Part shown: positions 5,906 to 52,096 of the stretch, one piece after another
How the letters are laid out: each line of letters opens with the position of its first letter
How positions within the stretch are numbered: the stretch's first letter is position 1
IMG/VR virus record: IMGVR_UViG_3300024348_000010
From: a virus
Lineage: Duplodnaviria; Heunggongvirae; Uroviricota; Caudoviricetes
Length of the DNA stretch: 64,000 bases
Strand: one strand, 5' to 3'
Position numbers and translations under genes: made by a program
Notes under the pieces: model-generated
Told to the model about the DNA's origin: nothing
Databases searched by the model: none
The model's input: only the letters and a program-made list of their open reading frames with translations

Positions 5906-6040
5906 GTCATATTCTTCTTCGAATGGATCTTCAAGATCAAGCTCTGCAGAACAGTATGGACAGTATTCTGGAAGAGCGGTGTTTTCTGTGATTATTTTAA
6001 ATTCCTCGTCGCATGACGGGCAGGTTATCCAATCCATCTT
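5906..6040 (-). CDS. small zinc-ribbon protein (CxxC...CxxC)
   Basis: 45-aa ORF with CPSC...CPYC, found by eye in an intergenic gap. Confidence 0.3.
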
Positions 6041-6048
6041 AGTTCCTC

Positions 6049-6396
6049 TTATTTTTTAAAGATGTCTTCTAAATCAACACCAACATATTCTGCTAGCTTC
6101 TTAATGAAATCTACTTTGTCATCCATGTGGCAATCAGGTTGACCGGTTTCTTCGTCGAACTTCTTTGCAGCTTTTAGCAGTTGCTTAAGTTCCTCAACCT
6201 CTTTCTTCAGTGCTTCGAATTCTTCTTTCGAAACTCCAGAAGTATCAATAACCAAAGGATATCCTGGTATGCCTGGTTGTGACGGATATGGAACACTTGT
6301 TGGTTGTGCTGGCCAAGGGTTTGGATGAACAATTCCTCGCCAACGAGGAGGAAAGTTATCCCGATAACCATCACCGATATTAGATACTGTACACAT
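6049..6396 (-). CDS. hypothetical protein
   Basis: 115 aa. Start overlaps the nrdB stop (ATGA coupling). Coiled-coil C-terminus. Confidence 0.45.
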   Translation of the reverse strand: MCTVSNIGDGYRDNFPPRWRGIVHPNPWPAQPTSVPYPSQPGIPGYPLVIDTSGVSKEEFEALKKEVEELKQLLKAAKKFDEETGQPDCHMDDKVDFIKKLAEYVGVDLEDIFKK

Positions 6397-7460
6397 TATA
6401 AAGTAAATCCTTTGAAAGTATTTTCGTCGACGTCTTTTTTGACACCACCAATCACATAGCTAGTAATTTCTGTTTCTTGCGGGGCAACTTGTACGTCAGA
6501 ACCTGAAATCCACTTCTGTGTCCATGGCAAAGGATTCGCTCCTGGCTTTCCGTTCAGACCGATTGCGCCCATACGTTTCGCGGCAATATGGTCTACGTAG
6601 TTACAAAGAAGTTCTTCGTTCAGACCAATCATCGAACCGTTCTGGAAAAGGTAATGTGCCCAACTTTTTTCTTGCTCGACCACTCGATGAAACATGCTGA
6701 TGCACTCATCTCGTGTCTCTTCTTGTATGCGAGCAAAGTCTGGATCCTCTTTCGGTAGAATTTTGAGGAGCTGTTGTGTCGAGGCAAGATGAACGTTCTC
6801 GTCCCGCGCGATGAGCTTGATGATCTTGGCGTTACCCTCCATCTTCTTAACTTCCGCAAAAGCCCAACTACATGCAAACGAGACATAGAACCTTACTCCT
6901 TCTAAAGCATTCACAGCATTTAGACAGAGCCATAGTGCTTTCTTGTGATCATAATTATATCGCATAACACTATTGAATGCAATTAAGTTATCATAGTACT
7001 TACTGATATCAGCAGCGCAGTCAGCTATTTCTTGGATGTCGAGCATCTCGTCAAATACCCTTGACGGATCTGAATAAACGTTTCGAATGATATGAGTGTA
7101 GGATCGACTATGAATCGTTTCGGAAAATGTCCATGTTTGGATCCAGGTTTCGAGTTCGGGGAGCGAACAAATCGGTAGAAATGCCAAGCTAGGCGCACGT
7201 CCCTGTACAGAGTCAAGAAGAATCTGACGCTTGAGATTGCTTGTAAAGATGTGCTTTTCATGGTCGCTTAACCCTTTAAAGTCTTTGCCGTCTCTTGACA
7301 GATCTACTTCTTCTGGCCGCCAAAAAAATCCGAGTTGCTTATCTGTCAGCTTCTCGAAGATATTGTAACGTTGCTTATCGTAACGGGCAATATTGACTTG
7401 CTTTCCAAAGAAACAAGTCTGTTCTGTAGCATCAAACATTTCGTTTGAAAAAACTGTCAT
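6396..7460 (-). CDS. nrdB: ribonucleotide reductase class Ia small (beta) subunit
   Basis: 354 aa. Ferritin-like di-iron/tyrosyl-radical motifs and the C-terminal tail typical of NrdB. Confidence 0.9.
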   Translation of the reverse strand: MTVFSNEMFDATEQTCFFGKQVNIARYDKQRYNIFEKLTDKQLGFFWRPEEVDLSRDGKDFKGLSDHEKHIFTSNLKRQILLDSVQGRAPSLAFLPICSLPELETWIQTWTFSETIHSRSYTHIIRNVYSDPSRVFDEMLDIQEIADCAADISKYYDNLIAFNSVMRYNYDHKKALWLCLNAVNALEGVRFYVSFACSWAFAEVKKMEGNAKIIKLIARDENVHLASTQQLLKILPKEDPDFARIQEETRDECISMFHRVVEQEKSWAHYLFQNGSMIGLNEELLCNYVDHIAAKRMGAIGLNGKPGANPLPWTQKWISGSDVQVAPQETEITSYVIGGVKKDVDENTFKGFTL

Positions 7461-8023
7461 TCAACTCTCCAGGTGCTGGTGTTTAGTTTAATATCTTTCG
7501 GCCAATCGCCTTCGGTATATGATTTATCATGGAATCGAAGTTCGTTTGTCGGCATGATAGTCAGTCTGCCATTGTCTAATTGAATAAACATAAATTCCTT
7601 CGACTGAGAAGGATCTTGTGAATATCCATCGTGCATTGGAATCACTGTAAAAAGATAACGGCCAAAAAGGCCGCTCTTTCGAATCTCTGCTTGTTGACTG
7701 TGTAGATAATTATATATCAATACTGAAAACTGATCGCCGTAACAATCCCACAACTGTGTATCTTCAAGATGCCAAGTTGATGTATTCGGTCGAAATGCCA
7801 GTGCATGAGGTGGAACTCCACGATAAACTGCTCCACATTCGAGCATCACGTGACATCCCCAAGAATGACCAGCTTTGGCATGAAGTGCAAACCATACACA
7901 TGGTTCGAACGTGTATGGTTTGGCATCTTTACGAATGAACGAAGAATCTACCCAACAATAGATATGATGCGGAAGATTTCCTGATCCCGTATATAGCACT
8001 ACCAGTCCTTCGCTTCGAGCCAC
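7457..8023 (-). CDS. hypothetical protein
   Basis: 188 aa, His/Cys-rich, no confident family. Confidence 0.45.
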   Translation of the reverse strand: MARSEGLVVLYTGSGNLPHHIYCWVDSSFIRKDAKPYTFEPCVWFALHAKAGHSWGCHVMLECGAVYRGVPPHALAFRPNTSTWHLEDTQLWDCYGDQFSVLIYNYLHSQQAEIRKSGLFGRYLFTVIPMHDGYSQDPSQSKEFMFIQLDNGRLTIMPTNELRFHDKSYTEGDWPKDIKLNTSTWRVE

Positions 8024-20575: not shown

Positions 20576-21013
20576 TTATTTCATCGATGCGCGGAGCATC
20601 CATGCGTGTTTGTTGTGCTGATCGAGTCTCTCTTCAAGGAAGTTAACAAGACCGTTTTGATTGTATTTGTCTGCTGCATCTCTTGCAAGTTGAAGAGAAG
20701 CAAGAACTCGATTATTATCTTCGAAAAGATTAGTTACCATGGTTATTGGAAGTAACTGAATAAGAGATTCATCTTCAATTGTTGATAGTTCATTGAATCT
20801 TCCGAACGATGCCGGAGCATAAGATTTTTGGGCTCGAATCTCTTCGGCAAAACGATCAATAGCACCACCAACTTCTTCATAGATATTACCAAAAAATTCA
20901 TGATACATCGGGAACATCGGTCCTTCGACATTCCAATGATAGTTCTGAGCCTTCACGTAAAGTGCATAGGTGTCTGCAAACGCGACCTTTAAAGGGTTTG
21001 TAATCTCTTCCAT
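20576..21013 (-). CDS. dps: Dps-family ferritin-like protein
   Basis: 145 aa. YHWNVEGPMFPMYHEFF matches the Dps ferroxidase-centre region. Confidence 0.7.
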   Translation of the reverse strand: MEEITNPLKVAFADTYALYVKAQNYHWNVEGPMFPMYHEFFGNIYEEVGGAIDRFAEEIRAQKSYAPASFGRFNELSTIEDESLIQLLPITMVTNLFEDNNRVLASLQLARDAADKYNQNGLVNFLEERLDQHNKHAWMLRASMK

Positions 21014-27275: not shown

Positions 27276-27310
27276 AAACAAAAGAAAACCGCCCCAGTAT
27301 ACTGGAGCGG
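27276..27310 (-). terminator. rho-independent terminator
   Basis: CCGCTCCAG-TATA-CTGGGGCGG hairpin followed by TTTTCTTTTGTTT on the minus strand, just downstream of the 27334..27891 gene. Confidence 0.6.
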
Positions 27311-27333
27311 TCGTATTACTTCTATTTATGTTG

Positions 27334-27891
27334 TTAGGCTGCGACTGCAAACCATTCTGGAATTGGACGTTTAGTCCATGCCATCTTGAATCGAGCCTGC
27401 TTCGTCTGATAGAACTTACGATATGAACCTACGATATCATTGTAGTCGATACACTCAGGATTGGCCTTCATTGCCAACGGCTGAGGAGTCTTGTAACCGA
27501 CAGGAATGTTACGAGGCAATTGCTTGAGTGCTTCGCGAAGCAATGTATCTGTGCTATGAACCTTGCCGTAGCGATATGTATACTCGTCACAAAGAGCTAC
27601 AAAGTGGACGTAATGCCAGTTGTAGTTGTTATTACTTTGTGCAGTCCAAATCGTACAAGGATGGTGCATATGCACTGCACGATAGAATGTATCTTCGCGC
27701 TCGTCAGGTAGAGTCCATGCCTTCGACATTGTCTTACCAGACTTTGAAGGCACACGTGTCTCTACACCGTCGAGCATACGATGTACAGTCGAGAGCATTT
27801 GAGCACTCTCGACGATCATCTTCACGACATGCTTGTCACACTGCAGCTGCGCAGCAACTACAGGATCACTGTCGAGAATGAAAAGATTCAT
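27334..27891 (-). CDS. hypothetical protein
   Basis: 185 aa. Confidence 0.45.
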   Translation of the reverse strand: MNLFILDSDPVVAAQLQCDKHVVKMIVESAQMLSTVHRMLDGVETRVPSKSGKTMSKAWTLPDEREDTFYRAVHMHHPCTIWTAQSNNNYNWHYVHFVALCDEYTYRYGKVHSTDTLLREALKQLPRNIPVGYKTPQPLAMKANPECIDYNDIVGSYRKFYQTKQARFKMAWTKRPIPEWFAVAA

Positions 27892-28304
27892 ATTCCAGCT
27901 TTCTTTACGAGATCTTTATATCCACGCCACGATGGATGGATATCATCAGGTTGAACATACGATGTAGCAATGATACGATCTCCGTAGCTTACGGCAATGC
28001 TTTTTACTATGGCGTTGACCTTAGGTTTACAAAAGCCTTTGTTACAAGGAGGCATAATCCATACTACATTGCCTACCTTAACACGAGTTCTAATTTTTGT
28101 CAACTCTTTTTTCGTATCAACGCCGCTATGATCGTTTGTTCCGAGGCTGATTACGATTGTCTTGGCTTCAAGCGGAGTTTTACCCCACTTCTTGTTCCAT
28201 TGCCAAGTATTCCAACCGCCCTTCGAATATGATACACATTCTTTCGGAGCAAACATCTTCGTTCCAACGGCGATCGAATCGCCCATAATCAAACATTCTA
28301 ACAT
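27888..28304 (-). CDS. SGNH/GDSL-like hydrolase
   Basis: N-terminal IMGDSIAVG (GDS-x motif). Confidence 0.5.
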   Translation of the reverse strand: MLECLIMGDSIAVGTKMFAPKECVSYSKGGWNTWQWNKKWGKTPLEAKTIVISLGTNDHSGVDTKKELTKIRTRVKVGNVVWIMPPCNKGFCKPKVNAIVKSIAVSYGDRIIATSYVQPDDIHPSWRGYKDLVKKAGI

Positions 28305-28567
28305 TAGACTTGTATTCCTGTTACTTGTTTCAGATATTGTGTAGCAACCTGTGCACTCGTTTCAGTAGCACCGACAATGACTGTGTCAGAGATTACGACG
28401 TTGTTATCAGGAGCTGACATCATCCATGGCATCATAGCAAAACCCTGAGGTCCCATACCAACTGTACGAGGCTTCAACAGTTCGGTGACACCACCTTCTT
28501 GCTTGACACGAGCAATGAGTTCTTCGCCCGACATAAGCTTAATTGTATATACTTTATTCTGTTCCAT
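28304..28567 (-). CDS. hypothetical protein
   Basis: 87 aa. Confidence 0.4.
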   Translation of the reverse strand: MEQNKVYTIKLMSGEELIARVKQEGGVTELLKPRTVGMGPQGFAMMPWMMSAPDNNVVISDTVIVGATETSAQVATQYLKQVTGIQV

Positions 28568-28940
28568 CGTTTTCTACCTCATAACGTTGCATCGTGCCTT
28601 TCCAGACTTTTACTCCACAACCATCATATTCCCAATCCCGTTGATCCGGATCGAGTTCTTTCATACTTGGATTTGGAGTATCATAGACTACTTCGTGCAC
28701 ATACTTAAATTTCTCTTCTTCTGACCACTCTTTGAGATAGTCATTATCTTCGTCGAAGATGCGAAGATACTCTGCATCATCAATCACGCGAGTAGAAGTG
28801 ATAGTCTCGTCAAGATATAATTGACTGAACTCTTCAGCTTCTTTCATCGTCACGACGTCTTTGGCATGTTCTGCGCTCTCGCATTCCACGACATATCGCA
28901 TGCGAAAGAAGTCGATTGTCTCTACAAGATACTTAGGCAC
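28554..28940 (-). CDS. hypothetical acidic protein
   Basis: 128 aa. Confidence 0.4.
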   Translation of the reverse strand: MPKYLVETIDFFRMRYVVECESAEHAKDVVTMKEAEEFSQLYLDETITSTRVIDDAEYLRIFDEDNDYLKEWSEEEKFKYVHEVVYDTPNPSMKELDPDQRDWEYDGCGVKVWKGTMQRYEVENDGTE

Positions 28941-29178
28941 CTTCTTTGAGTCCCATTTTTACCAGCTCATCGGGAGTGGAGTACCACTTGAGGAGAAGTT
29001 CGAGCGCGTCGATGTGCTTTTGGATCTCGGCATCATCGGCTTCTTGATCACCCCAGACAAAAACCCAGTCGCCATTGCCGAGATTGCCCTTTAAAGCTTC
29101 CCATGTATTACGCAGCTGACCGACCACGACGTGGTCTACAGTTTCCCAATCGAGTTCTACAGTATATCCAGAAGACAT
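28933..29178 (-). CDS. hypothetical protein
   Basis: Internal Met start chosen so the gene abuts the KAS stop. Confidence 0.35.
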   Translation of the reverse strand: MSSGYTVELDWETVDHVVVGQLRNTWEALKGNLGNGDWVFVWGDQEADDAEIQKHIDALELLLKWYSTPDELVKMGLKEGA

Positions 29179-29179
29179 T

Positions 29180-30289
29180 TTACTTTTCCTTTTCAACAAT
29201 AATTGAACAACACTTACCACCAAATCCAAATGAATTGACAAGAACTTTCTTGACATCTGTCTCGATGTTCTCCATCACCACATCCATATCAGTGTCTTGA
29301 CAACCAGCGGTATGAGGAATCACACCGTTCTGAATAGACAGTACACTGTAAATTGTTTCAAGTACACCTGCTGCAGCGAAAGTATGTCCAATTTTTCCTT
29401 TATTGGAATAGATCGGTGCATCAGTAAACTCGCGAACCACGTCATACTCTACCACATCTCCGAGTGGAGTGCTGGTTCCATGCGAGTTGACTGAGTCGAC
29501 TCCTTCGAGATCCAGCTTCTCCAAGCAAAGACGAGCTCCGGCTCCAGAAGGTGCAGTCGGATCGTGTGCATCTGAAGCATTCGAAACTCCAGTGATGCGA
29601 GCATATACCTTCGAACCCATCGCTTCGGCCTTTTCTCTCGACTGAAGGATGATGCAACCTGCACCTTCACCCATAATAAAACCGTCGCGATTCTTATCGA
29701 ATGGCATCGACTTCGAACCGATCGCCTTGATAATCGAGAAGAAGTAGAGATCCATGTGATTTACGCCAGCATCAGAACCGCCTACGATCACATAGTCATA
29801 CTCATCGAGCATTCGCATAGCATATTCGATGCTTACCAAACCTGTAGCACAAGCAGAATACACCATGGTATTGATACCAGTATATCCATACTTAATTGAG
29901 ATTTGACTGCAGAGATAATCCATCGTTGAGCGAAGGATCTGTTTTGGTTTCATCTTTCGACCTTCGGCATCTAACTTTGCTTTTGTCGAGTTGCCGCCTA
30001 AAAGAGTCGAGAAGATGACACCTACATTCGATGAATGCGGCAAATTTGCCATGTGTAAAGCTTGCTCAACCGCATGCATACCATAAGCTACTGCTCGAGG
30101 TTGTAATTCTTCATCGATATCAATTTCAGGATAAAACCCGTACTTAACTTTAAGATTGTGGCCTTCATGAACATGAGGATCGATAGGTTTATGGAAGTCT
30201 CGATCATTAAGCATATTCTCCCAACAATCGATGGGATTATCACCTAACGCATCGATCATTCCAAAGCCGACGATGCATGCTTCTTTCAT
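29180..30289 (-). CDS. beta-ketoacyl-ACP synthase (FabF/FabB-like condensing enzyme)
   Basis: 369 aa. Active-site Cys (SACATGL), HGTSTPLGD and GHTFAAAG His/Gly motifs of KAS I/II. Confidence 0.75.
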   Translation of the reverse strand: MKEACIVGFGMIDALGDNPIDCWENMLNDRDFHKPIDPHVHEGHNLKVKYGFYPEIDIDEELQPRAVAYGMHAVEQALHMANLPHSSNVGVIFSTLLGGNSTKAKLDAEGRKMKPKQILRSTMDYLCSQISIKYGYTGINTMVYSACATGLVSIEYAMRMLDEYDYVIVGGSDAGVNHMDLYFFSIIKAIGSKSMPFDKNRDGFIMGEGAGCIILQSREKAEAMGSKVYARITGVSNASDAHDPTAPSGAGARLCLEKLDLEGVDSVNSHGTSTPLGDVVEYDVVREFTDAPIYSNKGKIGHTFAAAGVLETIYSVLSIQNGVIPHTAGCQDTDMDVVMENIETDVKKVLVNSFGFGGKCCSIIVEKEK

Positions 30290-30681
30290 TCTACAACTTT
30301 CTTATAACGATTGATGGTGCCATCGGCTTCTTCGACCATAATCTCATCCATACGAGGATTATGAGCTAGAATTCTTTGTTCACCTTCGGCGATCACTCGA
30401 CCAGCTTCACGAAGAGTACGCATCACTGCATTGGCGATGCCTTTAGTATTACGACCGCTATCCATAGCAAGGCCAGCAGCATCAGCACAATCAAAATATA
30501 ACTTGTCTGGCAGTGACCAAGACAAGTCGACGGCGTTTTCAAAGTCACCTACACGACGCAGGTAGTCCTGACCGCCATCTACCCATACAGCACCGCAAGT
30601 GCAATTTACAAAGTCATGACGATGTTTAGAGATGATGAGATCTCCACATGACAAACAATTTACTGCGTTCTGAACAATCAT
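30286..30681 (-). CDS. hypothetical protein
   Basis: 131 aa, Cys-containing N-terminus. Confidence 0.4.
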   Translation of the reverse strand: MIVQNAVNCLSCGDLIISKHRHDFVNCTCGAVWVDGGQDYLRRVGDFENAVDLSWSLPDKLYFDCADAAGLAMDSGRNTKGIANAVMRTLREAGRVIAEGEQRILAHNPRMDEIMVEEADGTINRYKKVVE

Positions 30682-30911: not shown

Positions 30912-31091
30912 AGGTTCACCTTACTACAAAAAACTAATTTTGTAAACCCCCTAAAGCGAGAAGAATCAAAATAATAAAAAGAAAACCATAGAGGGCAAAT
31001 CGCAAAAAAATCTTGGCGACCTTAAACCCGACCCAAAGGAAGAAGCCTAAGATCGCCAAGAACGGCAACGATGAGAGGAGGAACACGATGC

Positions 31092-31511
31092 TCAACCGCG
31101 TCTCTTACCAGTTGCCGGATCGGCCGCTTCAGACTTGGAAAGGACAACAAGTCCGCCTTTGTTATAGGCTTGGCCGATGATATAATTGCCACTGACGGCA
31201 AGCTTTTCTTTCTCGTAAGAAGAATTCTTTGCGTAGTGTACACCGATCTCGTTCTGAGATGGGTACTTCTTACGATGATCTGATACGTTGTAATCAGGCA
31301 TCGGCGTGCCACGAAGCTTCGGCTTGTAGTTGCCTGCACGGTATTGCTGATATTCTTCGAACGTCTTTGGCTTGACGCCAATACGCTTGCAAAACTTACA
31401 GTCTTCGAGCCAAGCCAAACCAATTTTGGTATACTTCGAAGTTGTCATTTTGGACTTACGCTTGCCATGATGAGTGGTAGTGTAAGCAGGACCAAGAAGA
31501 TGCATTGTCAT
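31092..31511 (-). CDS. hypothetical basic protein
   Basis: 139 aa. TGTACATG element upstream at 31558. Confidence 0.4.
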   Translation of the reverse strand: MTMHLLGPAYTTTHHGKRKSKMTTSKYTKIGLAWLEDCKFCKRIGVKPKTFEEYQQYRAGNYKPKLRGTPMPDYNVSDHRKKYPSQNEIGVHYAKNSSYEKEKLAVSGNYIIGQAYNKGGLVVLSKSEAADPATGKRRG

Positions 31512-31552: not shown

Positions 31553-31572
31553 TAATTGTACATGCTTACTTT
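31553..31572 (-). promoter_or_regulatory. conserved TGTACATG element
   Basis: TTAATTGTACATGCTTACTT upstream of 31092..31511. Confidence 0.45.
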
Positions 31573-32363
31573 ACGTTGACGATACCCTTGAAGTCGTAAG
31601 GGATAACGATCGTGTTGACCTTACCGTCCTTGACAGCTTCGGCAATAGTAACGATAGCAGTTGCTTCCATGTACTTCGTTGCACCAGCGTTGGCATTCAG
31701 AGCAGCAATACGTTGTGCTTCAAGCTTAGCAGTACGAACTTCGACTTGCTTCTGCTTCTCAGCATTCTGAGCTTGAACAAGCGCATTAGCCGAGGCTACG
31801 ATGTTTGCAGCAGGCTTTACCTGACGAACAAGAACCTGTGAGATTGAAATTGCACCGTCAAGCTTCTCAGAAGCGAGCTGTGCTACAACTTCCTGACGAA
31901 TCAACTGTTCCATCTCAGCACGGTTATCAGCCATCTTCAATGACTCGTAACGACGAGCAACCTTATAGGCAGCATTACGACCAAGCTGACGGATGTAGTT
32001 GTACATCAGAAGAGTATCACCTTCTTCGGTGTCAGCGTGAAAACCACGGTTCTTCTCGATGTAGAGTTCTGCGACAGAACCTGGATTGATCGAGTAGATC
32101 ACTGCCATATCGAAGTCGGCAACAGTCGAGTTGTCCGAAGCCAATGGAGTCAAGTCAGACACATCAACCTGAACGTCCTTCGTTGGGAATGTCATGACAT
32201 CACCGAAGATGGTCTGATTAACAGAACCAGGCATCAACTCAGTGGTTTCAATAGTCTTGTCGAACGAACGACGAACACCAACTTCACCTGTTTCGATACG
32301 AGTACATGCAGCAGTCGTGGCCATCAGACCAGCGAGAACAGCAACCTTAGTAACATTTTTCAT
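31566..32363 (-). CDS. SPFH/band-7 domain lipoprotein
   Basis: Signal peptide plus lipobox (TTAAC). Ala-rich coiled coil typical of stomatin/HflK-like proteins. Confidence 0.45.
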   Translation of the reverse strand: MKNVTKVAVLAGLMATTAACTRIETGEVGVRRSFDKTIETTELMPGSVNQTIFGDVMTFPTKDVQVDVSDLTPLASDNSTVADFDMAVIYSINPGSVAELYIEKNRGFHADTEEGDTLLMYNYIRQLGRNAAYKVARRYESLKMADNRAEMEQLIRQEVVAQLASEKLDGAISISQVLVRQVKPAANIVASANALVQAQNAEKQKQVEVRTAKLEAQRIAALNANAGATKYMEATAIVTIAEAVKDGKVNTIVIPYDFKGIVNVK

Positions 32364-32593
32364 AATATATTCCTTTAAAACAATACAACGATTGAAACTG
32401 CAATCACAGTCGCCAAGGTGGCACAAGCCAAACTATACCCCAGCACCTTGGCGAGCTGAAGTTTTTCACGACCACTTGCAGCAGTGAAACCTTGGATCGC
32501 AAGGAACACGACTGCGAAGATAGCCAGAAACGCGAAAATCATTTTACTCATTCTATATCTCCTTATACATCACTTATTAGATAATGGCAACAG

Positions 32594-41390: not shown

Positions 41391-41416
41391 GGGGAGCGAA
41401 AGCTCCCCTTCTTTTT
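41391..41416 (+). terminator. rho-independent terminator
   Basis: GGGGAGC-GAA-AGCTCCCC hairpin then TTCTTTTT, between the convergent endolysin and hsp20 genes. Confidence 0.7.
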
Positions 41417-41933
41417 ACTTAGTTTTACCTTCTGCCAAGAATTCGGCAGCTTGCGACGGATACTCGGTATCTTCGTCGTCGATCTTTATCTTCTTCGGCT
41501 TCTTGTGCTCAGGAATAATAGCTTCCAAAGCAATCTTCAGAATACCATTCAGAAGAGATGCACCACGAATCTCTACGTTATCTGCGAGATTGAACGTGCG
41601 AGTGAATGGACGGTTAGCGAGTCCTTGATAAAGGAATGCTGGCCATGTCCACTCTCCATTTGACCCCTGTTCTGCAGGTTCACCAGACTGAACATTACCT
41701 TTAATGATGAGCTTATCATCTGCAAGTTCGATTTCAAGATCTTGCTTACCGAAGCCAGCAACAGCCATCTCGATAAGATACTTGCTCTCATCAATCTTCT
41801 TGATATTATATGGAGGATAGTTTTGTTGAGCGGCCTTTAAGGTCTGCTCTGTTGCTTCAGAAAGTTTCTTGACGATTGGATCAAATCCTACAAAGAAACG
41901 ATCAAAGGCTTGAGTTGAATAAAATTCTTTCAT
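41415..41933 (-). CDS. small heat-shock protein (Hsp20/alpha-crystallin)
   Basis: 172 aa. Alpha-crystallin domain (PPYNIKKIDESKYLIEMAVAGFGKQDLEIE). Confidence 0.75.
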   Translation of the reverse strand: MKEFYSTQAFDRFFVGFDPIVKKLSEATEQTLKAAQQNYPPYNIKKIDESKYLIEMAVAGFGKQDLEIELADDKLIIKGNVQSGEPAEQGSNGEWTWPAFLYQGLANRPFTRTFNLADNVEIRGASLLNGILKIALEAIIPEHKKPKKIKIDDEDTEYPSQAAEFLAEGKTK

Positions 41934-44529: not shown

Positions 44530-46593
44530 TCACTTACTTGTAGCTCTATAAACTCCGTCCCATTCCCAGGGTTCTTCAAACTTTAGATTCTGAATGCGTT
44601 TCTCCATCATATCGTAGTATGCATTCAGCTCTTCGTCCCAGCAACGTTTCAGATCTTTTATCAGATTGATAGCTGCATCCCATTTACCTTGACGATAGAA
44701 GTCCAAGAACTTTTTATGCAGCAATTCTCCAGCAGGATCTGCCACATCAAAAATGGTATAGATGCGAGCAGGTTCTGTCTTACCTTTCACGGCGATCAGG
44801 TCGAGTTCAACTACTTGGTATACATCCCCAACCAATTCGGCAGTTTGTGGTCCGACGACGAGTTTGACGCCATAAGGTTTGGATTGACCTTCCAGACGAG
44901 CAGCCAGATTAACGCCATCACCCAGACAAGTATAATCAAAACGCTGGCTACTGCCCATATTACCAACCACCACAGTGGCAGTGTTAATACCAAGACCCAT
45001 GCCAAAAGCGGGTATACCTTCTCTTTCAACTTCTTCATTAAATATCTCCAGGTCTTTTAGCATTTGAAATGCTGTTCGAACTGCATCTCGTGCATGTTGT
45101 TTGTTATCGAGCGGCGCATTCCAGAATGCCATCTGTGCATCACCAATATACTTATCTAATGTCCCATTGTTTTCAAGGATCGCTCTTGTCATGACCGTCA
45201 TATAACGATTCATGATTGAAGTCAAACCTTGGACATCTTCACCATAGTGTTCAGAGATTGTAGTAAATCCTCGAACGTCTGTGAACATGATTGAAAGCTC
45301 GCGAGATTCTCCGCCTAACTTCAAGAGATCTGGTTGTCTTTGCAATTTTGCTACCAGATCTGGACTCAGATATGTGCCGAACTGTTTCTTGATTTGTTGC
45401 TTCTGAAGGAATTCAGATATAAATTTCACTGTATAGATATGCATGTAAATAATTGCAATTGCGATGACGTTAAACGTGACGTCTAACAAGATTCCTTTGC
45501 TTGCGAATAAATACATAGGCAGATAAAGATATCCGCCTAAAATTAAACCTATCCAGACGATAGAGTATTTTAATCGAGAGATGATGATCAATGCCAGAGC
45601 CAAAACAAGAAGAGCAGCAAGATCTACAAGCTGTGTCCAATTCGGAATCGAAACCGAATCACCATTTATCAGAGTCTCAAGAATACTCGCCTGGAGCTGA
45701 TGGGGATACTGCGCACCTGAAGGAGTCGCTACAGGGTTACTTACACCAGCTGCAGTTACTCCGAGAATCACGATTTTACCACTCAGGACAGGCAAAGGAT
45801 CCTTGCCAATTTCGTATGACTCAAATCGATAGTTTGGATTAATAAACACGCGACCATATTCATCGGTCTTAATAGTTTCAAAAGAAGGAATTCGTAATGC
45901 TTCCACACCAGTCTCATTTATCTTTGCCTGATACGAAGGATCTCCGGCAGCAACTCTTAACATTTCTAGAGCAAATGCAGGGTAGTATTCACCCGCTGAG
46001 GTTGCGAGAAGCGGAACTCGTCGCACAACACCGTCAGGTTCAGGAAGAGTTGATGTCACTCCAACACCAGCAGCATGCTGCTGAAGCAATGCTAGATTCG
46101 ATAGGACGCATGGATATGACGGAAGAAAATCGGTTGACTGGCCATCCCCAACAACAGCCACACCTGTCCGACGAACATCGCGACTGGATGGTCGACCACA
46201 ATCCGCCGACACAGTCTGACTAAGAACAACTGGATACTTGCTTAGAGTATCAACAAGAACTCGATCAGTGCCCATCCGATCAGGCTCAGGCATAAGTACA
46301 GTGCTGCCAACAAGAGCAGCCCCTCGGCCATAAATGTTCCCAATAATTTCAGCGTGGACTTCACGCGGGAACGGCCACTGGCCATATTTTTCAATTGCTT
46401 TCTCCCCTAAATTAACGACTACAATCTGCTCAGATTGTTTTGCTTTATCGAGCATGATGTAGTCATAAAATTTAAGACGAGTCGCTTCAACTAGATATGG
46501 ATCTTGTAACTTAAAAGTAAATAGTACTGCAAATGTAAAGAGCGCCAACCACGGGCTCAGTAGAATCTTTTTCATCATGTCAGCGCTTTCCAT
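44530..46593 (-). CDS. CHASE2 sensor-domain membrane adenylate/guanylate cyclase (class III)
   Basis: 687 aa. N-terminal periplasmic CHASE2-like domain, three TM segments, C-terminal CYCc domain (FTDVRGFT, KYIGDAQMAFWNAP, GDGVNLAARLE). Confidence 0.75.
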   Translation of the reverse strand: MESADMMKKILLSPWLALFTFAVLFTFKLQDPYLVEATRLKFYDYIMLDKAKQSEQIVVVNLGEKAIEKYGQWPFPREVHAEIIGNIYGRGAALVGSTVLMPEPDRMGTDRVLVDTLSKYPVVLSQTVSADCGRPSSRDVRRTGVAVVGDGQSTDFLPSYPCVLSNLALLQQHAAGVGVTSTLPEPDGVVRRVPLLATSAGEYYPAFALEMLRVAAGDPSYQAKINETGVEALRIPSFETIKTDEYGRVFINPNYRFESYEIGKDPLPVLSGKIVILGVTAAGVSNPVATPSGAQYPHQLQASILETLINGDSVSIPNWTQLVDLAALLVLALALIIISRLKYSIVWIGLILGGYLYLPMYLFASKGILLDVTFNVIAIAIIYMHIYTVKFISEFLQKQQIKKQFGTYLSPDLVAKLQRQPDLLKLGGESRELSIMFTDVRGFTTISEHYGEDVQGLTSIMNRYMTVMTRAILENNGTLDKYIGDAQMAFWNAPLDNKQHARDAVRTAFQMLKDLEIFNEEVEREGIPAFGMGLGINTATVVVGNMGSSQRFDYTCLGDGVNLAARLEGQSKPYGVKLVVGPQTAELVGDVYQVVELDLIAVKGKTEPARIYTIFDVADPAGELLHKKFLDFYRQGKWDAAINLIKDLKRCWDEELNAYYDMMEKRIQNLKFEEPWEWDGVYRATSK

Positions 46594-47192
46594 TCTTCGG
46601 GTGTTATAACTTCTCTATTTACTAAAAGACTCTCATACAATTCAATCTCTTTTATCATATCTTCCCGTTTAAAGTATCTATTCTTTGGAAAAGGATCTAT
46701 ATTTCTATTAGTAGTATTGGTTTCAGCGCCTCGGGGTGATATCTTTGGAATATATTGAGATAGATCTTCAAATTTTATAATTCTAAAATCTCTATTTTTT
46801 ATAATATGCATATATGGACGACAGTGTTGATTAAAAATAAATCTTTCAATTTCCCACTCTCGTTGACGATCATCCCAGTTAATCAAGTCTTCAATAAGAG
46901 AAAAGTCGTCGCATTCTCCGGTGGTTTTATACTTTACTATTCGTTCATTAAATTGCTTTTCATGAAAATTAATAGCAGAATGCATACGTTCTACTGGATG
47001 CCTTAATACTACTACTTTCGGAGATTCTCCTTCTATCCAATGCGCAAATGTTTTTTGCATTGGTAGTTCTATTCCAAAATAATATGACATAGCCGTATGA
47101 CCGCACTTAGTCATAGATAAAACATTTAGATTGCCATTATCATGTATAAAAATAAACATAATTAATTCTTTACGTAGCTGTATCCAGTACAT
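46575..47192 (-). CDS. sulfotransferase-family protein
   Basis: 5'-PSB-like MTKCGHTAM and 3'-PB-like VVLRHPVERMHSAINF motifs. Confidence 0.5.
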   Translation of the reverse strand: MYWIQLRKELIMFIFIHDNGNLNVLSMTKCGHTAMSYYFGIELPMQKTFAHWIEGESPKVVVLRHPVERMHSAINFHEKQFNERIVKYKTTGECDDFSLIEDLINWDDRQREWEIERFIFNQHCRPYMHIIKNRDFRIIKFEDLSQYIPKISPRGAETNTTNRNIDPFPKNRYFKREDMIKEIELYESLLVNREVITPEEWKALT

Positions 47193-48622
47193 GGCCCAGT
47201 GGCGCAGGTGATTGACATTAAGACTGAGTCAGTAACGCTCGCGGCAGTTTGCGATACAGTGACTCCAATTCCAGGATTATTTATTACCAATTTAAACAGC
47301 TTCTGTGCAGAACCAGATTGAGTGATATTTGCATTCAACCCACCATACGGAGCACTGACATCGAGGAAATGATTACCAGTTCCTTGTTGAAGAGTCGTAA
47401 TCACATTCGAGTTACCTAAAATGTTGAAGAACGCAGACTTTCCACCAGTATCTTTCTGTTGGGCAGTCAGTTGATTTCCTGTTCCATTCATTATTAGCTC
47501 TGCATACTTGCCATTATATTGCTGAGTCAGAGATACGGTGTTATTGTTTCCTGTCACAGAGACTTCGGCAAGATTATTACCAAGAATTGCGACCGCAGTA
47601 CCTTGATTGATAGTAATGGAGTTGTTGCTACCATTGATCAACATCGATTGAGAACCATTTACACCTCTGATAGCGTTAAACCTCGAGAACTGCTCGATGT
47701 TGACGGTATTGTTATCACCGATATTTTGAATGTAAATCGAGTTGCTCGTAATGGCATTCGTTTGACCGAGCTTGATAGTTTGATTGGTAGTAATCGATGT
47801 AGTTGGATATACTGGTTCTGCAGGAGGTGGAGGTGGTGCAGTCGGTGCCGAAGATCCTTGGTTCGGTGCAACAGGAGCAAACGTAGCACCATTCAGTGAC
47901 GTTGTTCCTTGTAACTGATCGATGAATAAGATAGGCGAAAGAGCTGTGTCACCGAGGTTGAAAGAAGAGAATCCAAGCATATAGTTGCCATCTGCTGGAA
48001 CCGTGAACACGGCAACTTGCCAGCCAGTAGCACTATAAGAGTTAGTCGAATAGTTGCCAGTTCCAGGATTTGTAAAGCCTAACAGCGCATAGTTTTGTGT
48101 TTGACCGTTGAGAGTCGGTGTTCCCGGTCCACCCGTCAAGGTGATGAGAGAACCATCGTTATACGGAACATAGTCTGTCGACAGATACTGCCAACCAAAC
48201 GAATATGTAATTCCTGCCTGCAAGAATACTGTTCGACTGACTGAAGAAGCGTTCGTAGGATACATCGATCCGTTCGAATAGATCGTGTTACGAATAGATG
48301 TAATGTTAGAAGCGCTGAGCCCAAGAGTAGTCATCGCAGCATTAAAATTGGGCGAGTTTCCTCCTGCTTGAATCGATAACATGTACGATCCATACGGAGT
48401 AATCGTCCAGCACTTACCACCGCCTGGGCAATAGTTCTGTACTCCAGTTGTCACTTGTACACCGTTACCAGTGTCGCTCCATGAAGTACGAAGTGCAGTA
48501 GATCCGTTCGACACCGTCCAACCCGCATAATTTCCATCTTCGAAACCATAGTTCGAAGGCGTCTGCGCATTTAACTGTACGCTGAACGTTAACAGTAGTA
48601 GTGTTAAGATCCATCTCATCAT
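47162..48622 (-). CDS. secreted protein with C-terminal curlin-like (Q-x-G-x-N) repeats
   Basis: Signal peptide MMRWILTLLLLTFSVQLNA. N-terminal beta-rich domain. C-terminal repeats (SITINQGTAVAILGNN, TVSLTQQYNGKYAEL, LTAQQKDTGGKSAFFNILGNSNVITTLQQGTGN). Confidence 0.5.
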   Translation of the reverse strand: MMRWILTLLLLTFSVQLNAQTPSNYGFEDGNYAGWTVSNGSTALRTSWSDTGNGVQVTTGVQNYCPGGGKCWTITPYGSYMLSIQAGGNSPNFNAAMTTLGLSASNITSIRNTIYSNGSMYPTNASSVSRTVFLQAGITYSFGWQYLSTDYVPYNDGSLITLTGGPGTPTLNGQTQNYALLGFTNPGTGNYSTNSYSATGWQVAVFTVPADGNYMLGFSSFNLGDTALSPILFIDQLQGTTSLNGATFAPVAPNQGSSAPTAPPPPPAEPVYPTTSITTNQTIKLGQTNAITSNSIYIQNIGDNNTVNIEQFSRFNAIRGVNGSQSMLINGSNNSITINQGTAVAILGNNLAEVSVTGNNNTVSLTQQYNGKYAELIMNGTGNQLTAQQKDTGGKSAFFNILGNSNVITTLQQGTGNHFLDVSAPYGGLNANITQSGSAQKLFKLVINNPGIGVTVSQTAASVTDSVLMSITCATGPCTGYSYVKN

Positions 48623-49755
48623 CTTACACCCGATTCTTGTATCACGGTGATATTTCCTTGCGGTCTACCTGTGCCAGTCGTAGTCCATTTATCATCCATA
48701 AAATTGTATGCGTCGACGACACCATTATGAGATGAAATCATTTGGATTTCAGTATCTTTTGGTAACCATACCACGACAACTTGATTCTTATCTTCAGAGA
48801 TTCTCGAGTATACCCAACCTACCTGCACCAACTTCTTAAAAGTGGGCGATACGTTCGTATAAACGGTTTCTGTAGGCCTCTTTCCAGAATTATACTCTGC
48901 ATAAATTTCTTGAAGTTCATTCTGTGTAGGCAAACGAAGTGTAGCCACCGCTACTTCTTCTACACCATCTCCGCCAGTATTTGGATCTTGGTTATCGTCA
49001 GATGCCGCTTTTGCAGGATTGACAAACTTCTTCAAAGCTTCACGAGCTGCTGTGATCAGTGATTGTCCATCATCGGTTTCGAGGGGAGAGATCTGAATAT
49101 TGTTGTCCATACCCTTCATTGAAGGATTGATGACGACAGGAGGAGCAGGAGGCGCATAAGAATTCTCGACCATCGTTGCTTGGAATGGCTGAGTCAGAGT
49201 GACGATACCTGCAGCAGTGATCACGTCGATAGCTCCTGATGGGCATTCGAAGTTGATCTTTGTGATATCTTTGTCATTGTAACATTCAGGAACAAGAACG
49301 ACTGTCGATCTGCCAGCTTCGTCGACAGACATGACAAAGTCTGTACCTCTTACGGCGATCGTTGCAGTCGGTGTACGTATACCGACACCACGAGCATTGC
49401 CATGAGCAATCGCTCCAGAAGTATATCTTGCAGTTCCTAAAGCTAGCTTCAAACCGAGCTTGCCTTTGCTCTTATTGTTTCCATCATATACGAAATCGTC
49501 GATGACCAGCCGTGAATTCTGTGTGATGTTCACAGTGGTGGCATCGACGAATCGAATCTTAAATTTACCTTGAGAATTGGTCGACACAGTATCGTTCTTC
49601 TCGATACTCGAGCCTTTAGCAGCAGGTGCAACTTTTGCACCACGCTTTACAGAACCTCCACCCTGAAATTCTGATATCGATCCCACGCCTGCAAAAGCTG
49701 GAACCGATATCAGAAAGAGTGCATTAATGGCCAGTTTTAATATTAAACGTACCAT
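48619..49755 (-). CDS. FecR-domain protein (periplasmic partner of CHASE2 cyclases)
   Basis: Signal peptide. FecR-like block (IEKNDTVSTNSQGKFKIRFVDATTVNITQNSRLVID ... IRTPTATIAVRGTDFVMSV). Confidence 0.6.
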   Translation of the reverse strand: MVRLILKLAINALFLISVPAFAGVGSISEFQGGGSVKRGAKVAPAAKGSSIEKNDTVSTNSQGKFKIRFVDATTVNITQNSRLVIDDFVYDGNNKSKGKLGLKLALGTARYTSGAIAHGNARGVGIRTPTATIAVRGTDFVMSVDEAGRSTVVLVPECYNDKDITKINFECPSGAIDVITAAGIVTLTQPFQATMVENSYAPPAPPVVINPSMKGMDNNIQISPLETDDGQSLITAAREALKKFVNPAKAASDDNQDPNTGGDGVEEVAVATLRLPTQNELQEIYAEYNSGKRPTETVYTNVSPTFKKLVQVGWVYSRISEDKNQVVVVWLPKDTEIQMISSHNGVVDAYNFMDDKWTTTGTGRPQGNITVIQESGVR

Positions 49756-50542
49756 TTGAACCCGCCGAGTTAATATTGATTACGGTTTCAGAAGCTCCGT
49801 ACTGTTGGGTTGTAATGGTGTTCAGTGTACCTGTGAGGTTCACATACAGAGAATGGCCGAATGTTCCGCCGAGACCTGTTTGTGTCACGTCGAAGTCATT
49901 GTAATCACCAGTCACGAGAATGGTTTGAGTTGCGTTAGGCGAGAGTGCATCGATGTTGAATGCATTGTTGTCACCAGTGATATCCATCGAGTTACGAATG
50001 TTTTCGCCTGAACCATGGAATACGAGCGAGTTTGAATCGCCTGTAAATCTGGCATTCAGATCAAACTTGTTACAGATAGCATCAGATTGAAGCGTGCCGC
50101 AACGAATGTCTGCAGTGTTGAGATTACCGATCTGACGAACAGTTACTGCTGCGATTCCTGTTGCTCCTGTAGCGGAGACCACGCCCATGTAGAGTTCGTT
50201 TCCGTTACCGGTTTGAACAGCGATGACACTTTGATTATCACCTCGTAAATAGATAGGATCAGCATTGTCGCCAATGATATTAGCAGTACCAGTTTGAACA
50301 ATGTTAACATCTACATTACCACCTTCTTGGTCGATATATACTTTGTTTGTTGTAGCTACTGCAGCTGCAGTCACTTCATTTGGTGACGTAGTTACAATTG
50401 CTGGTGGAGTTGGGGCTGTTGGTAGCACTGTTTGTGCAATCGCAGATGTTCCATAAAGAAGAGCAGCTCCAACGAATAAAGATTTAATTACCTTCATTTG
50501 TTGTTTCCTTTTGCTTAAATCTCCATAGACCTTTACGTTCAC
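49724..50542 (-). CDS. curlin-repeat secreted protein (CsgA/CsgB-like amyloid subunit candidate)
   Basis: Signal peptide (probable start MKVIKSLFVGAALLYGTSAIAQ near 50494). Repeats IDQEGGNVDVNIVQTGTAN, VIAVQTGNGNELY, VTQTGLGG, TTQQYGASETVININSAGSNG. Confidence 0.55.
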   Translation of the reverse strand: MNVKVYGDLSKRKQQMKVIKSLFVGAALLYGTSAIAQTVLPTAPTPPAIVTTSPNEVTAAAVATTNKVYIDQEGGNVDVNIVQTGTANIIGDNADPIYLRGDNQSVIAVQTGNGNELYMGVVSATGATGIAAVTVRQIGNLNTADIRCGTLQSDAICNKFDLNARFTGDSNSLVFHGSGENIRNSMDITGDNNAFNIDALSPNATQTILVTGDYNDFDVTQTGLGGTFGHSLYVNLTGTLNTITTQQYGASETVININSAGSNGTFNIKTGH

Positions 50543-51308
50543 CGTCCTTGATCAATTCCACAACGGCCGTTTCTATGGCTGAACGGATCGCATAACTACC
50601 TGCTTCATTCGATGTTTGTTGTCCATCGAATTCAAAAGCTTTTGTTGCCATGTCAAAAAACTTAAATGCTGTCACTCCCTCGGACGTAGAGAGCAGATTC
50701 TTCTCAACAGTGACAGAGGTCAGGACTTCTCCTGTCTGTACTGATACGAGTCGCATACTAATAGTAACTTGATCTTCTGCATACTGTTGATAAGGGCCGA
50801 TTCCAAGGAATCGTGCACCGTTACCACCAGTTTTGGTATTTGAACTATAGTCAATAATACCACCTTCAAGAATGATACCCGCAACCATCAAAGGAGGAAG
50901 TGGCTCAGCACCTTCTCCGAGTTGTTGCTCTCTCATCTGTCTTACGAGCTGACGTTCTTTAATTAAAGAATCGATGCCTACACGCTCGACTGGTTTAAAC
51001 CATTTGCCATCTCCGACATCTGCCAATGTTTTGATAACATAAGCATCTGCACCTTGAGTCACGGCTGTCGAAAAGCTGGCTTGAGTAGCAGAAGGTTTGC
51101 GTTGTCCTGTTCTATCAGTGAACGAGTAGATGGCAATCGGAATTACCTGACCGTCAAGTTCTGGTAGAGTTCTGAACAACTTAGGATTTGCAAATCTTTC
51201 TACCTCGGCATCTTCTCTCATCAGATACGACTGATTGAGATGAGGATGCACTCCGCCTGCGCAGGCAGTTGTGACAAGAAGCAGTGGAAGTAAAATTAGC
51301 TTTTTCAT
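50484..51308 (-). CDS. csgG: curli production assembly/transport lipoprotein CsgG-like outer-membrane channel
   Basis: Lipoprotein signal (LLLVTTAC). Block IAIYSFTDRTGQRKPSATQASFSTAVTQGADAYVIKTLADVGDGKWFKPVERVGIDSLIKERQLVR is collinear with E. coli CsgG (VSVYNIQDETGQFKP..SNFSTAVPQSATAMLVTALKDSRWFIPLERQGLQNLLNERKIIR). Confidence 0.8.
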   Translation of the reverse strand: MKKLILLPLLLVTTACAGGVHPHLNQSYLMREDAEVERFANPKLFRTLPELDGQVIPIAIYSFTDRTGQRKPSATQASFSTAVTQGADAYVIKTLADVGDGKWFKPVERVGIDSLIKERQLVRQMREQQLGEGAEPLPPLMVAGIILEGGIIDYSSNTKTGGNGARFLGIGPYQQYAEDQVTISMRLVSVQTGEVLTSVTVEKNLLSTSEGVTAFKFFDMATKAFEFDGQQTSNEAGSYAIRSAIETAVVELIKDGERKGLWRFKQKETTNEGN

Positions 51309-51317
51309 GACTTCTCC

Positions 51318-51758
51318 TTAAAACGCAAACGTTGCGATAGGAACAGTCACGACTGTCGTGTTACCAAATTTGTCGACAACTGTCAACGTCACAGATGTGC
51401 CAGTTTTTACATAGCTAATTGTGTTACCATCGAGATTGAACATGCCTTGCTGAGCAGAACCTTCGGCAAAGAGATTGTTTGAAAGCTGTGTGGCTAGCTG
51501 AGCATATACCTGAGAGGTAAACAGAGCCATAAACTTTGCAAGCGGAGTGTTCGAAGCTTCAGCTTTTGCAAGAGCGGCTTTTGCTGCTTCTGCATCTTTG
51601 ATTGCTTGTTCACGAGAACGTTCTTGCGCATCGATTGCCTGCACATGTTGTGACCATCCATATCCATTGAAGGACGGACTTTTAAACTGCTGTACGAGTG
51701 GATCAGCTTTTGCTGGGCTGCTTAGTATCAGAGCTAGCAGGAGCAGACTCTTTTTCAT
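51318..51758 (-). CDS. csgF: CsgF-like curli assembly protein
   Basis: Signal peptide from the internal Met. Mature N-terminus LVQQFKSPSFNGYG matches the CsgF N-terminal motif (TFQFRNPNFGGNP). C-terminal beta-strand tail. Confidence 0.6.
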   Translation of the reverse strand: MKKSLLLLALILSSPAKADPLVQQFKSPSFNGYGWSQHVQAIDAQERSREQAIKDAEAAKAALAKAEASNTPLAKFMALFTSQVYAQLATQLSNNLFAEGSAQQGMFNLDGNTISYVKTGTSVTLTVVDKFGNTTVVTVPIATFAF

Positions 51759-51832
51759 CTTTCTTTTCCCTCTTAAAAGGTATATCTTTGTTCGAAGAAA
51801 GACTAAATTCAAGTGTGAAGATCTTGATGATT

Positions 51833-52096
51833 TCAATCTTTAGATTTATGTTCACTGTGATCTTCCTTTATCTGCAATACAACGTTCACCTTCTGATTCA
51901 ATCGAATAAGATCGTTATCCAACATACGGACACGATCAATCAACGCAATTAAAATTACATTTGTTTCGCCAATCAATGGCATTAGTTTATCTGTTACGAA
52001 CTTATAGATGAACCACACAAAATAACCCATGCCGACCGCTGCGACAATTGGAAATCCATATTGTTTTACCAGTTCTGCAATTATTTGTGGATCCAT
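51833..52096 (-). CDS. small single-TM membrane protein (paralog A)
   Basis: 87 aa. GFPIVAAVGMGYFVWFIYKF...DRVRMLDNDLIRL. Paralogous to the next ORF. Confidence 0.45.
   Translation of the reverse strand: MDPQIIAELVKQYGFPIVAAVGMGYFVWFIYKFVTDKLMPLIGETNVILIALIDRVRMLDNDLIRLNQKVNVVLQIKEDHSEHKSKD

Follow-up and report, generated by a model that had tools for sequence, protein, structure and literature searches.

Knowledge of phage genes that rewire host lipid metabolism comes mainly from the desaturases of cyanophages, and in the literature that we searched (main texts, not supplements) no phage beta-ketoacyl-acyl carrier protein (ACP) synthase (KAS) has been characterized, phage fabF being mentioned in passing only. 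Freshwater pelagimyophages (fonsimyophages, PMP-D) have been reported to carry fabF, a stearoyl-CoA desaturase and speH as unique genes (Zaragoza-Solas et al. 2020, PMC7029224), with a single sentence given to fabF in the text of that paper, which also describes curli operons (CsgG/CsgF) in marine pelagimyophages. Elsewhere, genes listed for deep-water viromes include fabF/G/Z (PMC10653327), and predicted prophages of Rhodobacteraceae are described with fabG-acpP-fabF in host gene order (PMC8224337). Here we describe a KAS gene in a 64,000-nucleotide stretch of Caudoviricetes DNA (IMG/VR record IMGVR_UViG_3300024348_000010), the whole of which is called the window below. On balance, we favor the reading that this gene encodes a working, compact FabF-like condensing enzyme and is an optional auxiliary metabolic gene acting on host acyl-ACP; sequence, fold and genomic context together suggest its catalytic activity, its use of host ACP and its physiological role.

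A compact FabF-like synthase in a T4-like phage

The gene and the codons of its catalytic residues lie on the minus strand of the window, as follows.

29180..30289, minus strand: KAS gene (compact FabF-like beta-ketoacyl-ACP synthase), ATG start, 369 aa
29849..29851, minus strand: codon TGT of the active-site Cys147 (SACATG), aligned with the FabF/FabB Cys and invariant in 27/27 sequences
29480..29482, minus strand: codon of the catalytic His270 (HGTSTP), from alignment and 27/27 invariance
29384..29401, minus strand: codons of Lys297 to His302 (SNKGKIGH, with the catalytic Lys and the second His), from alignment and invariance
29213..29236, minus strand: NSFGFGGK loop, residues 352-359, with the gatekeeper Phe356 and the clade-specific Lys359, from alignment

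The protein matched both KAS domains, PF00109 (3.3e-28, 99.4 bits) and PF02801 (2e-19, 70.2 bits; Pfam cut-offs 20.8 bits), and carries SACATGL at residues 145-151, HGTSTPLGD at 270-278 and GHTFAAAG at 301-308. The first-pass annotation, made from the letters of the sequence, had described a 369-aa KAS with these three motifs, shorter than cellular FabF; the open reading frame (ORF), the motifs and the domains were all verified, and the E. coli proteins are indeed longer (FabF 413 aa, FabB 406 aa). In a sequence search of the PDB, the closest solved relatives were the FabF enzymes of T. thermophilus (1j3n) and B. subtilis (4ls5), with E ~1e-44, and in the alignment C147, H270, K297, H302 and F356 stand opposite the catalytic residues of these two enzymes. 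The same equivalences were obtained with E. coli FabF and FabB (sequences from annotated records), with which Asp278 and Glu281 align too, and C147, H270, K297, H302, F356, D278 and E281 are invariant in 27/27 KAS sequences spanning 42-92% identity. Cys360 is likewise invariant among the 27 sequences, and Lys359 is at least 90% conserved. Domains, alignments and invariance thus bear out the earlier proposal of a phage-encoded elongating KAS whose Cys-His-His triad is intact, and no misalignment of the Cys or His residues was seen against either FabF or FabB.

The AF2 model of the protein (predicted local distance difference test, pLDDT, 92.6; predicted template-modeling score, pTM, 0.94) gave Foldseek matches with template-modeling (TM) scores of 0.90-0.93 to FabF and 0.88-0.91 to FabB. 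By its domains, catalytic set and thiolase fold, the phage protein belongs to the KAS I/II superfamily. It has ~41 residues fewer than B. subtilis FabF, spread across ~14 short gaps, and by comparison of sequence and model the compaction appears to be loop trimming with every structural element retained; such a minimal enzyme could reveal which FabF/FabB loops are dispensable. Some of the differences characterize the clade. An 8-residue deletion precedes SMPFD, in which Met replaces an Arg (E. coli FabF reads NDNPQAASRPWD there); this Arg, that of SRPWD, we take to contact ACP in E. coli FabF. After GG, the loop of the acyl pocket is trimmed and differs among clade members, and FGFGGKC stands where cellular FabF and FabB have FGFGG(T/H)N. 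The length of the loop after SDA..P is not a clade character, because the loop is FabB-length (APS--G.GA) in the window KAS and in one divergent viral relative (L029) and FabF-length in two other members of the same clade (L030 and P0103).

Prediction of a homodimer scored 0.90 (best of three controls 0.00), which indicates likeness only, since KAS homodimers have been solved many times; the same mark was reached by 20/30 proteins solved as one-chain pairs and by 1/23 solved as single chains. Contacts agreed by at least 98% between runs, with a partner pLDDT of at least 92, and the predicted interface is formed by residues 134-146, beside Cys147, and 356-359.

KAS is under strong purifying selection. 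The ratio of nonsynonymous to synonymous substitution rates (dN/dS) has a median of 0.094 and a maximum of 0.139 among 27 close copies (308 pairs with 0.05 < dS < 2), and the ORF is intact in 29/29 full-length copies (the window, 26 close loci, L029 and L030; L027, whose KAS is cut by the contig end, was left out). Base composition (GC content 0.438; 0.403 at third codon positions) matches that of the window's other genes (means 0.429 +/- 0.040 and 0.412 +/- 0.079), and the gene is therefore not a recent foreign insert.

The window is DNA of a large T4-like lytic phage, not of a cell. It encodes ribonucleotide reductase, thymidylate synthase, primase, a DnaB-like helicase, a UvsX-like recombinase, a T4-type DNA polymerase (49-50% identical to those of Synechococcus myophages), an endolysin and a spanin-like protein, with phage replication and lysis genes on both sides of KAS and 87/107 rough gene calls on the minus strand; a megablast search with the window found no near-identical deposited phage. 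With its phage flanks, 28 syntenic viral loci, selection and composition, KAS is by the usual standards a phage auxiliary metabolic gene. The two divergent viral relatives, L029 and L030, also belong to T4-like phages, because gp32, T4 baseplate and late-transcription coactivator genes are among the neighbors of their KAS genes. In L029 (40-7010 and 11140-11784), KAS lies amid genes for a sulfotransferase, three glycosyltransferase-25 paralogues, a desaturase, a class-III aminotransferase and a 2-oxoglutarate-Fe(II) (2OG-Fe(II)) oxygenase.

By curated scores, tree and fab-cluster context, this KAS is not a FabF or FabB equivalog. Its best NCBIfam match was fabF TIGR03150, at 231.3 bits against a cut-off of 493.75, and all the curated models stayed below their cut-offs, among them FabB PRK07967 (158.3 bits, cut-off 630) and AmcF NF058662, a type II polyketide synthase (PKS)-like model (131.7 bits, cut-off 325); the fabF model gave 177-287 bits on five other clade members, all under the cut-off. 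A phylogeny with FabF and FabB, named as a check in the first-pass annotation, was computed from 81 rows. These comprised 46 compact rows (the window, L029, L030 and 43 of 130 stand-alone metagenome proteins after 70% clustering), 33 cellular FabF-like ORFs of 410-435 aa (from 39 ORFs of 80 genome loci, six outside the length range being dropped), and E. coli FabF and FabB. All 46 compact rows fell on one side of a branch of length ~0.8 (SH-aLRT 100), separate from the 34 cellular FabF sequences and E. coli FabB, in a tree that is unrooted, made by a quick method and thinly sampled on the cellular side. Since KAS is thus placed apart from the FabF and FabB enzymes sampled, it may act on a range of substrates different from that of either.

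In a word-indexed search, 7,949 of the 8,000 candidates scored had E <= 0.001. The best 120 relatives run without a break from 97% to 41% identity and are 210-400 aa long; the compact lineage itself measures 367-407 aa. The viral-contig collection held 30 loci with a KAS relative, 28 of them at 85-95% identity with the window's gene order, besides L029 (50%) and L030 (42%), and a scan with a more basal clade member added 19 viral loci. Searches of the same collection with the basal members P0199 and P0252 found no relative; phage-only status therefore holds for much of the compact clade, not for the whole. Among species-representative genomes, the best 80 of 597 matches were ordinary FabF proteins of ~417 aa at 30-38% identity, mostly from Alphaproteobacteria, and no donor could be named from these 80. 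The top 150 of the protein-representative search were dominated by giant PKS proteins, in which several ketosynthase (KS) domains are summed, and added ~20 stand-alone relatives.

In deposited phages, tblastn of KAS gave matches in 28/50,697 records, all at 27-36% identity, and most such 'FabF/FabB' matches are no closer than cellular FabF/FabB. The one inspected, the 'beta-ketoacyl-ACP synthase I' of Escherichia phage 500465-2 (L115, NC_049343.1 25406-32620), adjoins mnmC, an MFS transporter gene and flk; the prophage record ends there in E. coli chromosomal DNA, and the gene was rejected as a phage KAS. The fabG-acpP-fabF clusters of the Rhodobacteraceae 'prophages' were also rejected as members of the KAS lineage, as they keep host gene order in the published description (PMC8224337). 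The earlier statement that such a gene is rare in phages accordingly holds for deposited records and fails for uncultivated viral contigs and metagenomes, where the lineage is common. No PHROGs family was found for the KAS or for the SGNH protein encoded nearby. To annotate these phage genes as plain 'fabF' overstates current knowledge.

An accessory cassette next to a DUF7695 gene

The surroundings of KAS in the window are laid out as follows.

30286..30681, minus strand: DUF7695 zinc-ribbon-like gene, upstream flank of the cassette (PF24749, 1.1e-21)
30286..30289, minus strand: upstream junction, ATGA, in which the DUF7695 stop overlaps the KAS start
29176..29182, minus strand: downstream junction, TAAaATG, with the KAS stop, one base, and the ATG of the 81-aa ORF s81
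28933..29178 (81 aa), 28554..28940 (128 aa) and 28304..28567 (87 aa), minus strand: three small co-directional ORFs between KAS and the SGNH gene
27888..28304, minus strand: minimal SGNH hydrolase, 138 aa
27287..27312, minus strand: terminator-like hairpin with 11 pairs, 7 of them G-C, and a T-run, from a consensus scan

KAS is an accessory cassette at a gene-swap hotspot within this co-directional block, not a core gene, because the junction occurs in several variants and because KAS presence needs at least three changes on the tree of the s87-SGNH flank (19 rows), two of them forced by starred branches. On that tree, one KAS-less genome is nested among KAS-bearing ones. The junction was covered by 50 loci, the window included, amounting to 25 distinct sequences, 14 with KAS and 11 without. 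In KAS-less relatives with near-identical flanks, DUF7695 directly abuts s81, and others have different inserts at that point. The gap between the flanks is accordingly 4 nt in direct abutment, 152-611 nt with other small inserts, 1,110-1,113 nt with KAS alone, and up to 2.6 kb where KAS is joined by an AAA ATPase gene or another insert; over all the loci, inserts reach 2.8 kb. The DUF7695 gene is present in KAS-less relatives too, and so is not KAS-specific; the three small ORFs between KAS and the SGNH gene are kept there as well. This presence/absence cassette at one tight junction is new here, and through this polymorphism nearly the same phage occurs naturally in KAS-plus and KAS-minus forms, a comparison usable for ecology or experiment.

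Other arrangements were seen at the same site. In three loci (L001-L003), a 361-aa AAA ATPase gene stands between DUF7695 and KAS (8916-10001 in L001), two loci (L004 and L005) have a different insert at that position, and in L028 ~1.4 kb is inserted after KAS. Upstream of the KAS block, the window has an SPFH/Band 7 gene (31566-32426; PF01145, phrog_200 'lipoprotein') whose N-terminus resembles a lipoprotein signal by eye, and two small hydrophobic ORFs (30934-31095 and 32375-32551).

The hairpin at 27287..27312 probably ends the co-directional block, judging from its sequence; the scan found 3 terminator-like sites in all, against 3.4 expected by chance. Promoter-like sites were at chance level in a consensus scan (14 against 12.1 +/- 3.6 expected), and no promoter could be assigned.

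Outside the block, the window is rich in other genes. A single minus-strand cluster of 25 tRNA genes (56489-62019) covers 19 amino acids (no Tyr) and includes tRNA-Ile(tat). A host-like block of envelope and signaling genes (44530-51836) comprises a CHASE2-adenylate/guanylate cyclase (44530-46593), a FecR-domain protein (48619-49755), a curlin-repeat-like ORF (49724-50542), CsgG (50484-51308) and CsgF (51318-51836). A sugar-modification block (1134-3607) encodes a SIS-domain isomerase, a GHMP kinase and a group-1 glycosyltransferase, and is preceded by a methyltransferase gene (379-1134). A small protein of the S-adenosylmethionine (AdoMet) decarboxylase family (5059-5445; PF02675, 5.2e-14) adjoins a SegE-like GIY-YIG endonuclease (5447-5869). 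Further auxiliary genes encode a ferritin-like protein (20576-21013), Hsp20 (41415-41933), a radical SAM/SPASM enzyme (52397-53410), a peroxiredoxin (54825-55412) and an outer-membrane beta-barrel protein (55862-56422).

Partner genes and candidate roles

In the reading that we favor, KAS would be a homodimeric, decarboxylating condensing enzyme of the KAS I/II (FabF/FabB) type that most likely takes host-made acyl-ACP and malonyl-ACP and adds two-carbon units. It may thereby sustain or shift type II fatty-acid elongation of the host during phage replication, and with it membrane lipid supply or chain length. The suggestion in the first-pass annotation that the enzyme boosts or redirects host fatty-acid synthesis is still the best reading, with genomic context as what points to it. 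If it is true, the elongation step that controls the rate of fatty-acid synthesis is a point at which some abundant aquatic T4-like phages intervene.

The genes that accompany KAS differ between two sets of viral records. Among 84 ORFs of the window searched against Pfam, there was no ACP, FabD, FabG, FabI, FabZ or phosphopantetheinyl transferase (PPTase), and acpP, fabD and fabG, which the earlier annotation had looked to elsewhere in the genome, were thus not found in the window. Neither tblastn with the carrier-like protein of another KAS-bearing lineage (G006, described below) nor a DSL-motif regular expression gave an ACP-like match in the window, and no counterpart of that protein was found in the window or in records G001-G005. 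PF00550 was found in 0/5 records of the window's group, one of them 128 kb long and estimated at 75% complete, and PF01648 and PF13561 in 0/3 searched records of the group (G001-G003). The 75%-complete record thus resembles the window in that neither a carrier protein or PPTase nor FabD, FabG, FabI or FabZ was found in it. A search of the window for a second KS-like gene of the chain-length-factor (CLF) kind found none. As the available DNA of the window's lineage, from incomplete genomes, has neither carrier nor PPTase, we infer that its KAS depends on host ACP.

A desaturase (PF00487) was found in 3/5 records of the window's group, the two without it being fragments that are 21-22% complete, and in 5/5 of a second, independent set of KAS-bearing viral records; desaturase and KAS therefore co-occur in 8/10 viral records examined. 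In this second set, 3/5 records had a phosphopantetheine (PP)-binding match, inside an acidic protein of 326-331 aa with a DLDIDSLD core, ~30 kb from KAS. The G006 lineage, which is T4-like, has a FabI-like reductase (PF13561, 240 bits; NCBIfam FabI 261 bits, under the cut-off of 446), an AcpS-like PPTase (PF01648, 41.9 bits) and a desaturase within 5 kb of KAS, a module conserved in ~10 loci. Its genes are placed as follows.

L137 (G006:C1:100000-110000), 1558-7712, co-directional: block of FabI-like, AcpS-like and desaturase genes, unknowns of 263 and 350 aa, and a 407-aa KAS
L136 (G006:C1:71500-74500), 793-1773: gene for the carrier-like protein, 326 aa, acidic, with a DLDIDSLD core (PF00550, 24.1 bits)

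These partners of the G006 type, together with the desaturases, support a fatty-acyl-ACP role for the KAS clade. The literature searched, again in main texts and not supplements, gave no paper on a phage-encoded PPTase with a carrier-domain protein or on a phage ACP/FabI module.

Several observations weigh against a role in host fatty-acid elongation. In the close relative G001, the desaturase lies ~90 kb from KAS, and the only lipid-related gene beside the window KAS is the unlinked SGNH gene. All the curated KAS cut-offs are far above the scores of the protein, the tree separates it from the FabF and FabB sampled, and the clade-specific changes (the 8-residue deletion with its Arg-to-Met change and the trimmed pocket loop) are at functionally sensitive places. 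The absence of ACP rests on the 64 kb window and a record that is ~75% complete, and genes for a PP-binding protein and an AcpS-like protein are present in the other lineage with KAS. Lastly, near-identical phages do without KAS, and any benefit must therefore be conditional.

Some of the same evidence would fit a KAS that makes a specialized acyl product, such as a lipopolysaccharide (LPS)/lipid A chain, a lipid modification, a signaling lipid or a chain on a virus-encoded carrier, and not bulk membrane lipid. Its position outside the sampled FabF/FabB and under all equivalog cut-offs, the trimmed and variable pocket loop, the glycosyltransferase-25, sulfotransferase, aminotransferase and 2OG-oxygenase genes around KAS in L029, and the AcpS-like gene and 326-aa protein with a PP-binding core in the G006 lineage all point that way. 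However, the window's lineage yielded no carrier, PPTase, acyltransferase or tailoring gene, the neighbors of KAS differ between lineages, and the partners that recur are of ordinary fatty-acid synthesis (FAS) and desaturase types; we therefore regard a specialized product as unlikely, though worth keeping in view. Also rather doubtful is a broader proposal, in which the compact clade forms the center of an acyl-carrier system that is encoded by viruses and partly self-sufficient, the window copy being a stripped-down mobile cassette of that system. Under that proposal, the G006-type lineage could use a viral carrier to assemble an acyl chain specific to the virus, and the window cassette may be swapped in and out of phage genomes by host or environment.

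The proximity of an SGNH gene raises the question of a functional pair, in which the SGNH protein would act as a TesA-like acyl-ACP thioesterase that frees fatty acids and relieves feedback. That the neighbor is an SGNH/GDSL hydrolase, as first annotated, is borne out by its conserved blocks and predicted fold, with a Pfam score that stays under threshold (29.2 bits against PF13472, cut-off 32.9). Blocks I (GDS), II (G), III (GxND) and V (DxxH) are invariant in 27/27 homologues, and all top Foldseek matches of the AF2 model (pLDDT 89.5) were SGNH enzymes (E 1e-5, TM 0.6-0.71); a PDB sequence search gave chance-level glutathione-peroxidase matches alone (E > 0.4). The gene had been placed two genes upstream of KAS; in the order of transcription it is in fact downstream of KAS, from which three small ORFs separate it.

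For a pair speak the single co-directional block, present in 27/28 close loci or running off the contig end, and E. coli TesA, itself an SGNH enzyme, among the fold matches (ranks 39-45, TM 0.64). Overproduction of TesA deregulates fatty-acid synthesis. The leading fold matches, however, are not TesA. They are PatB/OatA peptidoglycan O-acetyltransferase domains, GDSL esterases and platelet-activating factor (PAF) acetylhydrolase, that is, with peptidoglycan/carbohydrate O-acetyl enzymes at the top. The SGNH family (959 matches, the best 120 all at least 72% identical) also has a far wider distribution and stronger conservation than the KAS near-clade. From the best 80 of 553 viral SGNH loci, we counted the 60 with at least 2.2 kb upstream and left out the 20 with less; the counts are of loci, not of independent genomes, some being pieces of contigs already represented. 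KAS was present in 15/60 and missing from 45/60, and its presence by class of SGNH identity was as follows (13/18 at 93-100%, 0/13 at 80-92%, 2/23 at 69-79% and 0/6 at 60-68%). Conversely, L006 carries KAS without an SGNH gene, and L029 and L030 share no neighbor with the window; in the examined loci of all three no SGNH gene was found. Because 45/60 SGNH loci are without KAS and L006 has KAS without SGNH, the SGNH hydrolase is a widespread phage gene independent of KAS. The link implied by the first-pass annotation thus finds no support, and a functional pair, largely refuted by this distribution, is very unlikely.

Even less credit is due to a role in cofactor synthesis, with KAS feeding octanoyl-ACP to lipoate or pimeloyl-ACP to biotin, for which one may cite the many other auxiliary metabolic genes of the phage and the filing of fabF/G/Z under 'biotin metabolism' via KEGG in virome survey lists (PMC10653327). 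The window showed no bio or lip genes, and the recurrent partners, desaturase and FabI, act on long chains. Least credible of all is a non-condensing protein, either decarboxylase-only (KSQ/CLF-like) or a decoy that binds host ACP or heterodimerizes with host FabF/FabB to stop synthesis: KAS does stand without partners in the window and has changes near the presumed ACP-docking loop, but KSQ/CLF proteins are not known to have the active-site Cys, whereas here that Cys (not Gln) and the full catalytic set are invariant in 27/27, dN/dS is 0.09 across the whole gene, and the predicted homodimer interface is canonical (by likeness to solved structures only).

A polyketide-like product, also raised in the first-pass annotation, was rejected. 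The AmcF score of 131.7 bits is under its cut-off of 325 and under the fabF match, no CLF, ACP or cyclase was found, and the window and related records held no ACP, acyltransferase, ketoreductase or CLF, the partners elsewhere being FAS-type.

Comparison with known systems

Bacterial FabF (E. coli; B. subtilis 4LS5; P. aeruginosa 4JB6 and 8QER) shares with the phage enzyme its fold, catalytic triad, Lys, gatekeeper Phe and the Asp/Glu after HGTSTP, with 29-31% identity to E. coli FabF/FabB. It differs in setting: the phage KAS is not beside acpP, fabG and fabD, as judged against the E. coli cluster, and is carried by a lytic phage. FabB (PRK07967) is alike in fold and catalytic set; the branch that sets the compact rows apart has E. 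coli FabB on its cellular side. The AmcF-type ketosynthase (NF058662) resembles KAS in its compact length, its profile being 369 long.

Besides the cassette, what is new here is the measured independence of KAS and SGNH and the lineage with AcpS-like, FabI-like and carrier-domain genes. Among phages, the pelagimyophages of PMC7029224 are also T4-like and aquatic, and the AdoMet-decarboxylase-like gene of the window and the desaturase of its relative G001 recall their speH and stearoyl-CoA desaturase, in a comparison of gene lists, not sequences. They differ in that the freshwater group is described there as without curli, radical SAM and LPS genes, whereas the window has CsgG/CsgF and a radical SAM/SPASM enzyme, and in that the GC content of the window is 43%, against 32-34% in the displayed table rows of that paper. 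The lipid desaturases of cyanophages, as described by Roitman et al. (PMC5776448), offer the likeness of a phage auxiliary metabolic gene acting on host acyl chains; they are of a different family and modify existing chains rather than extend them.

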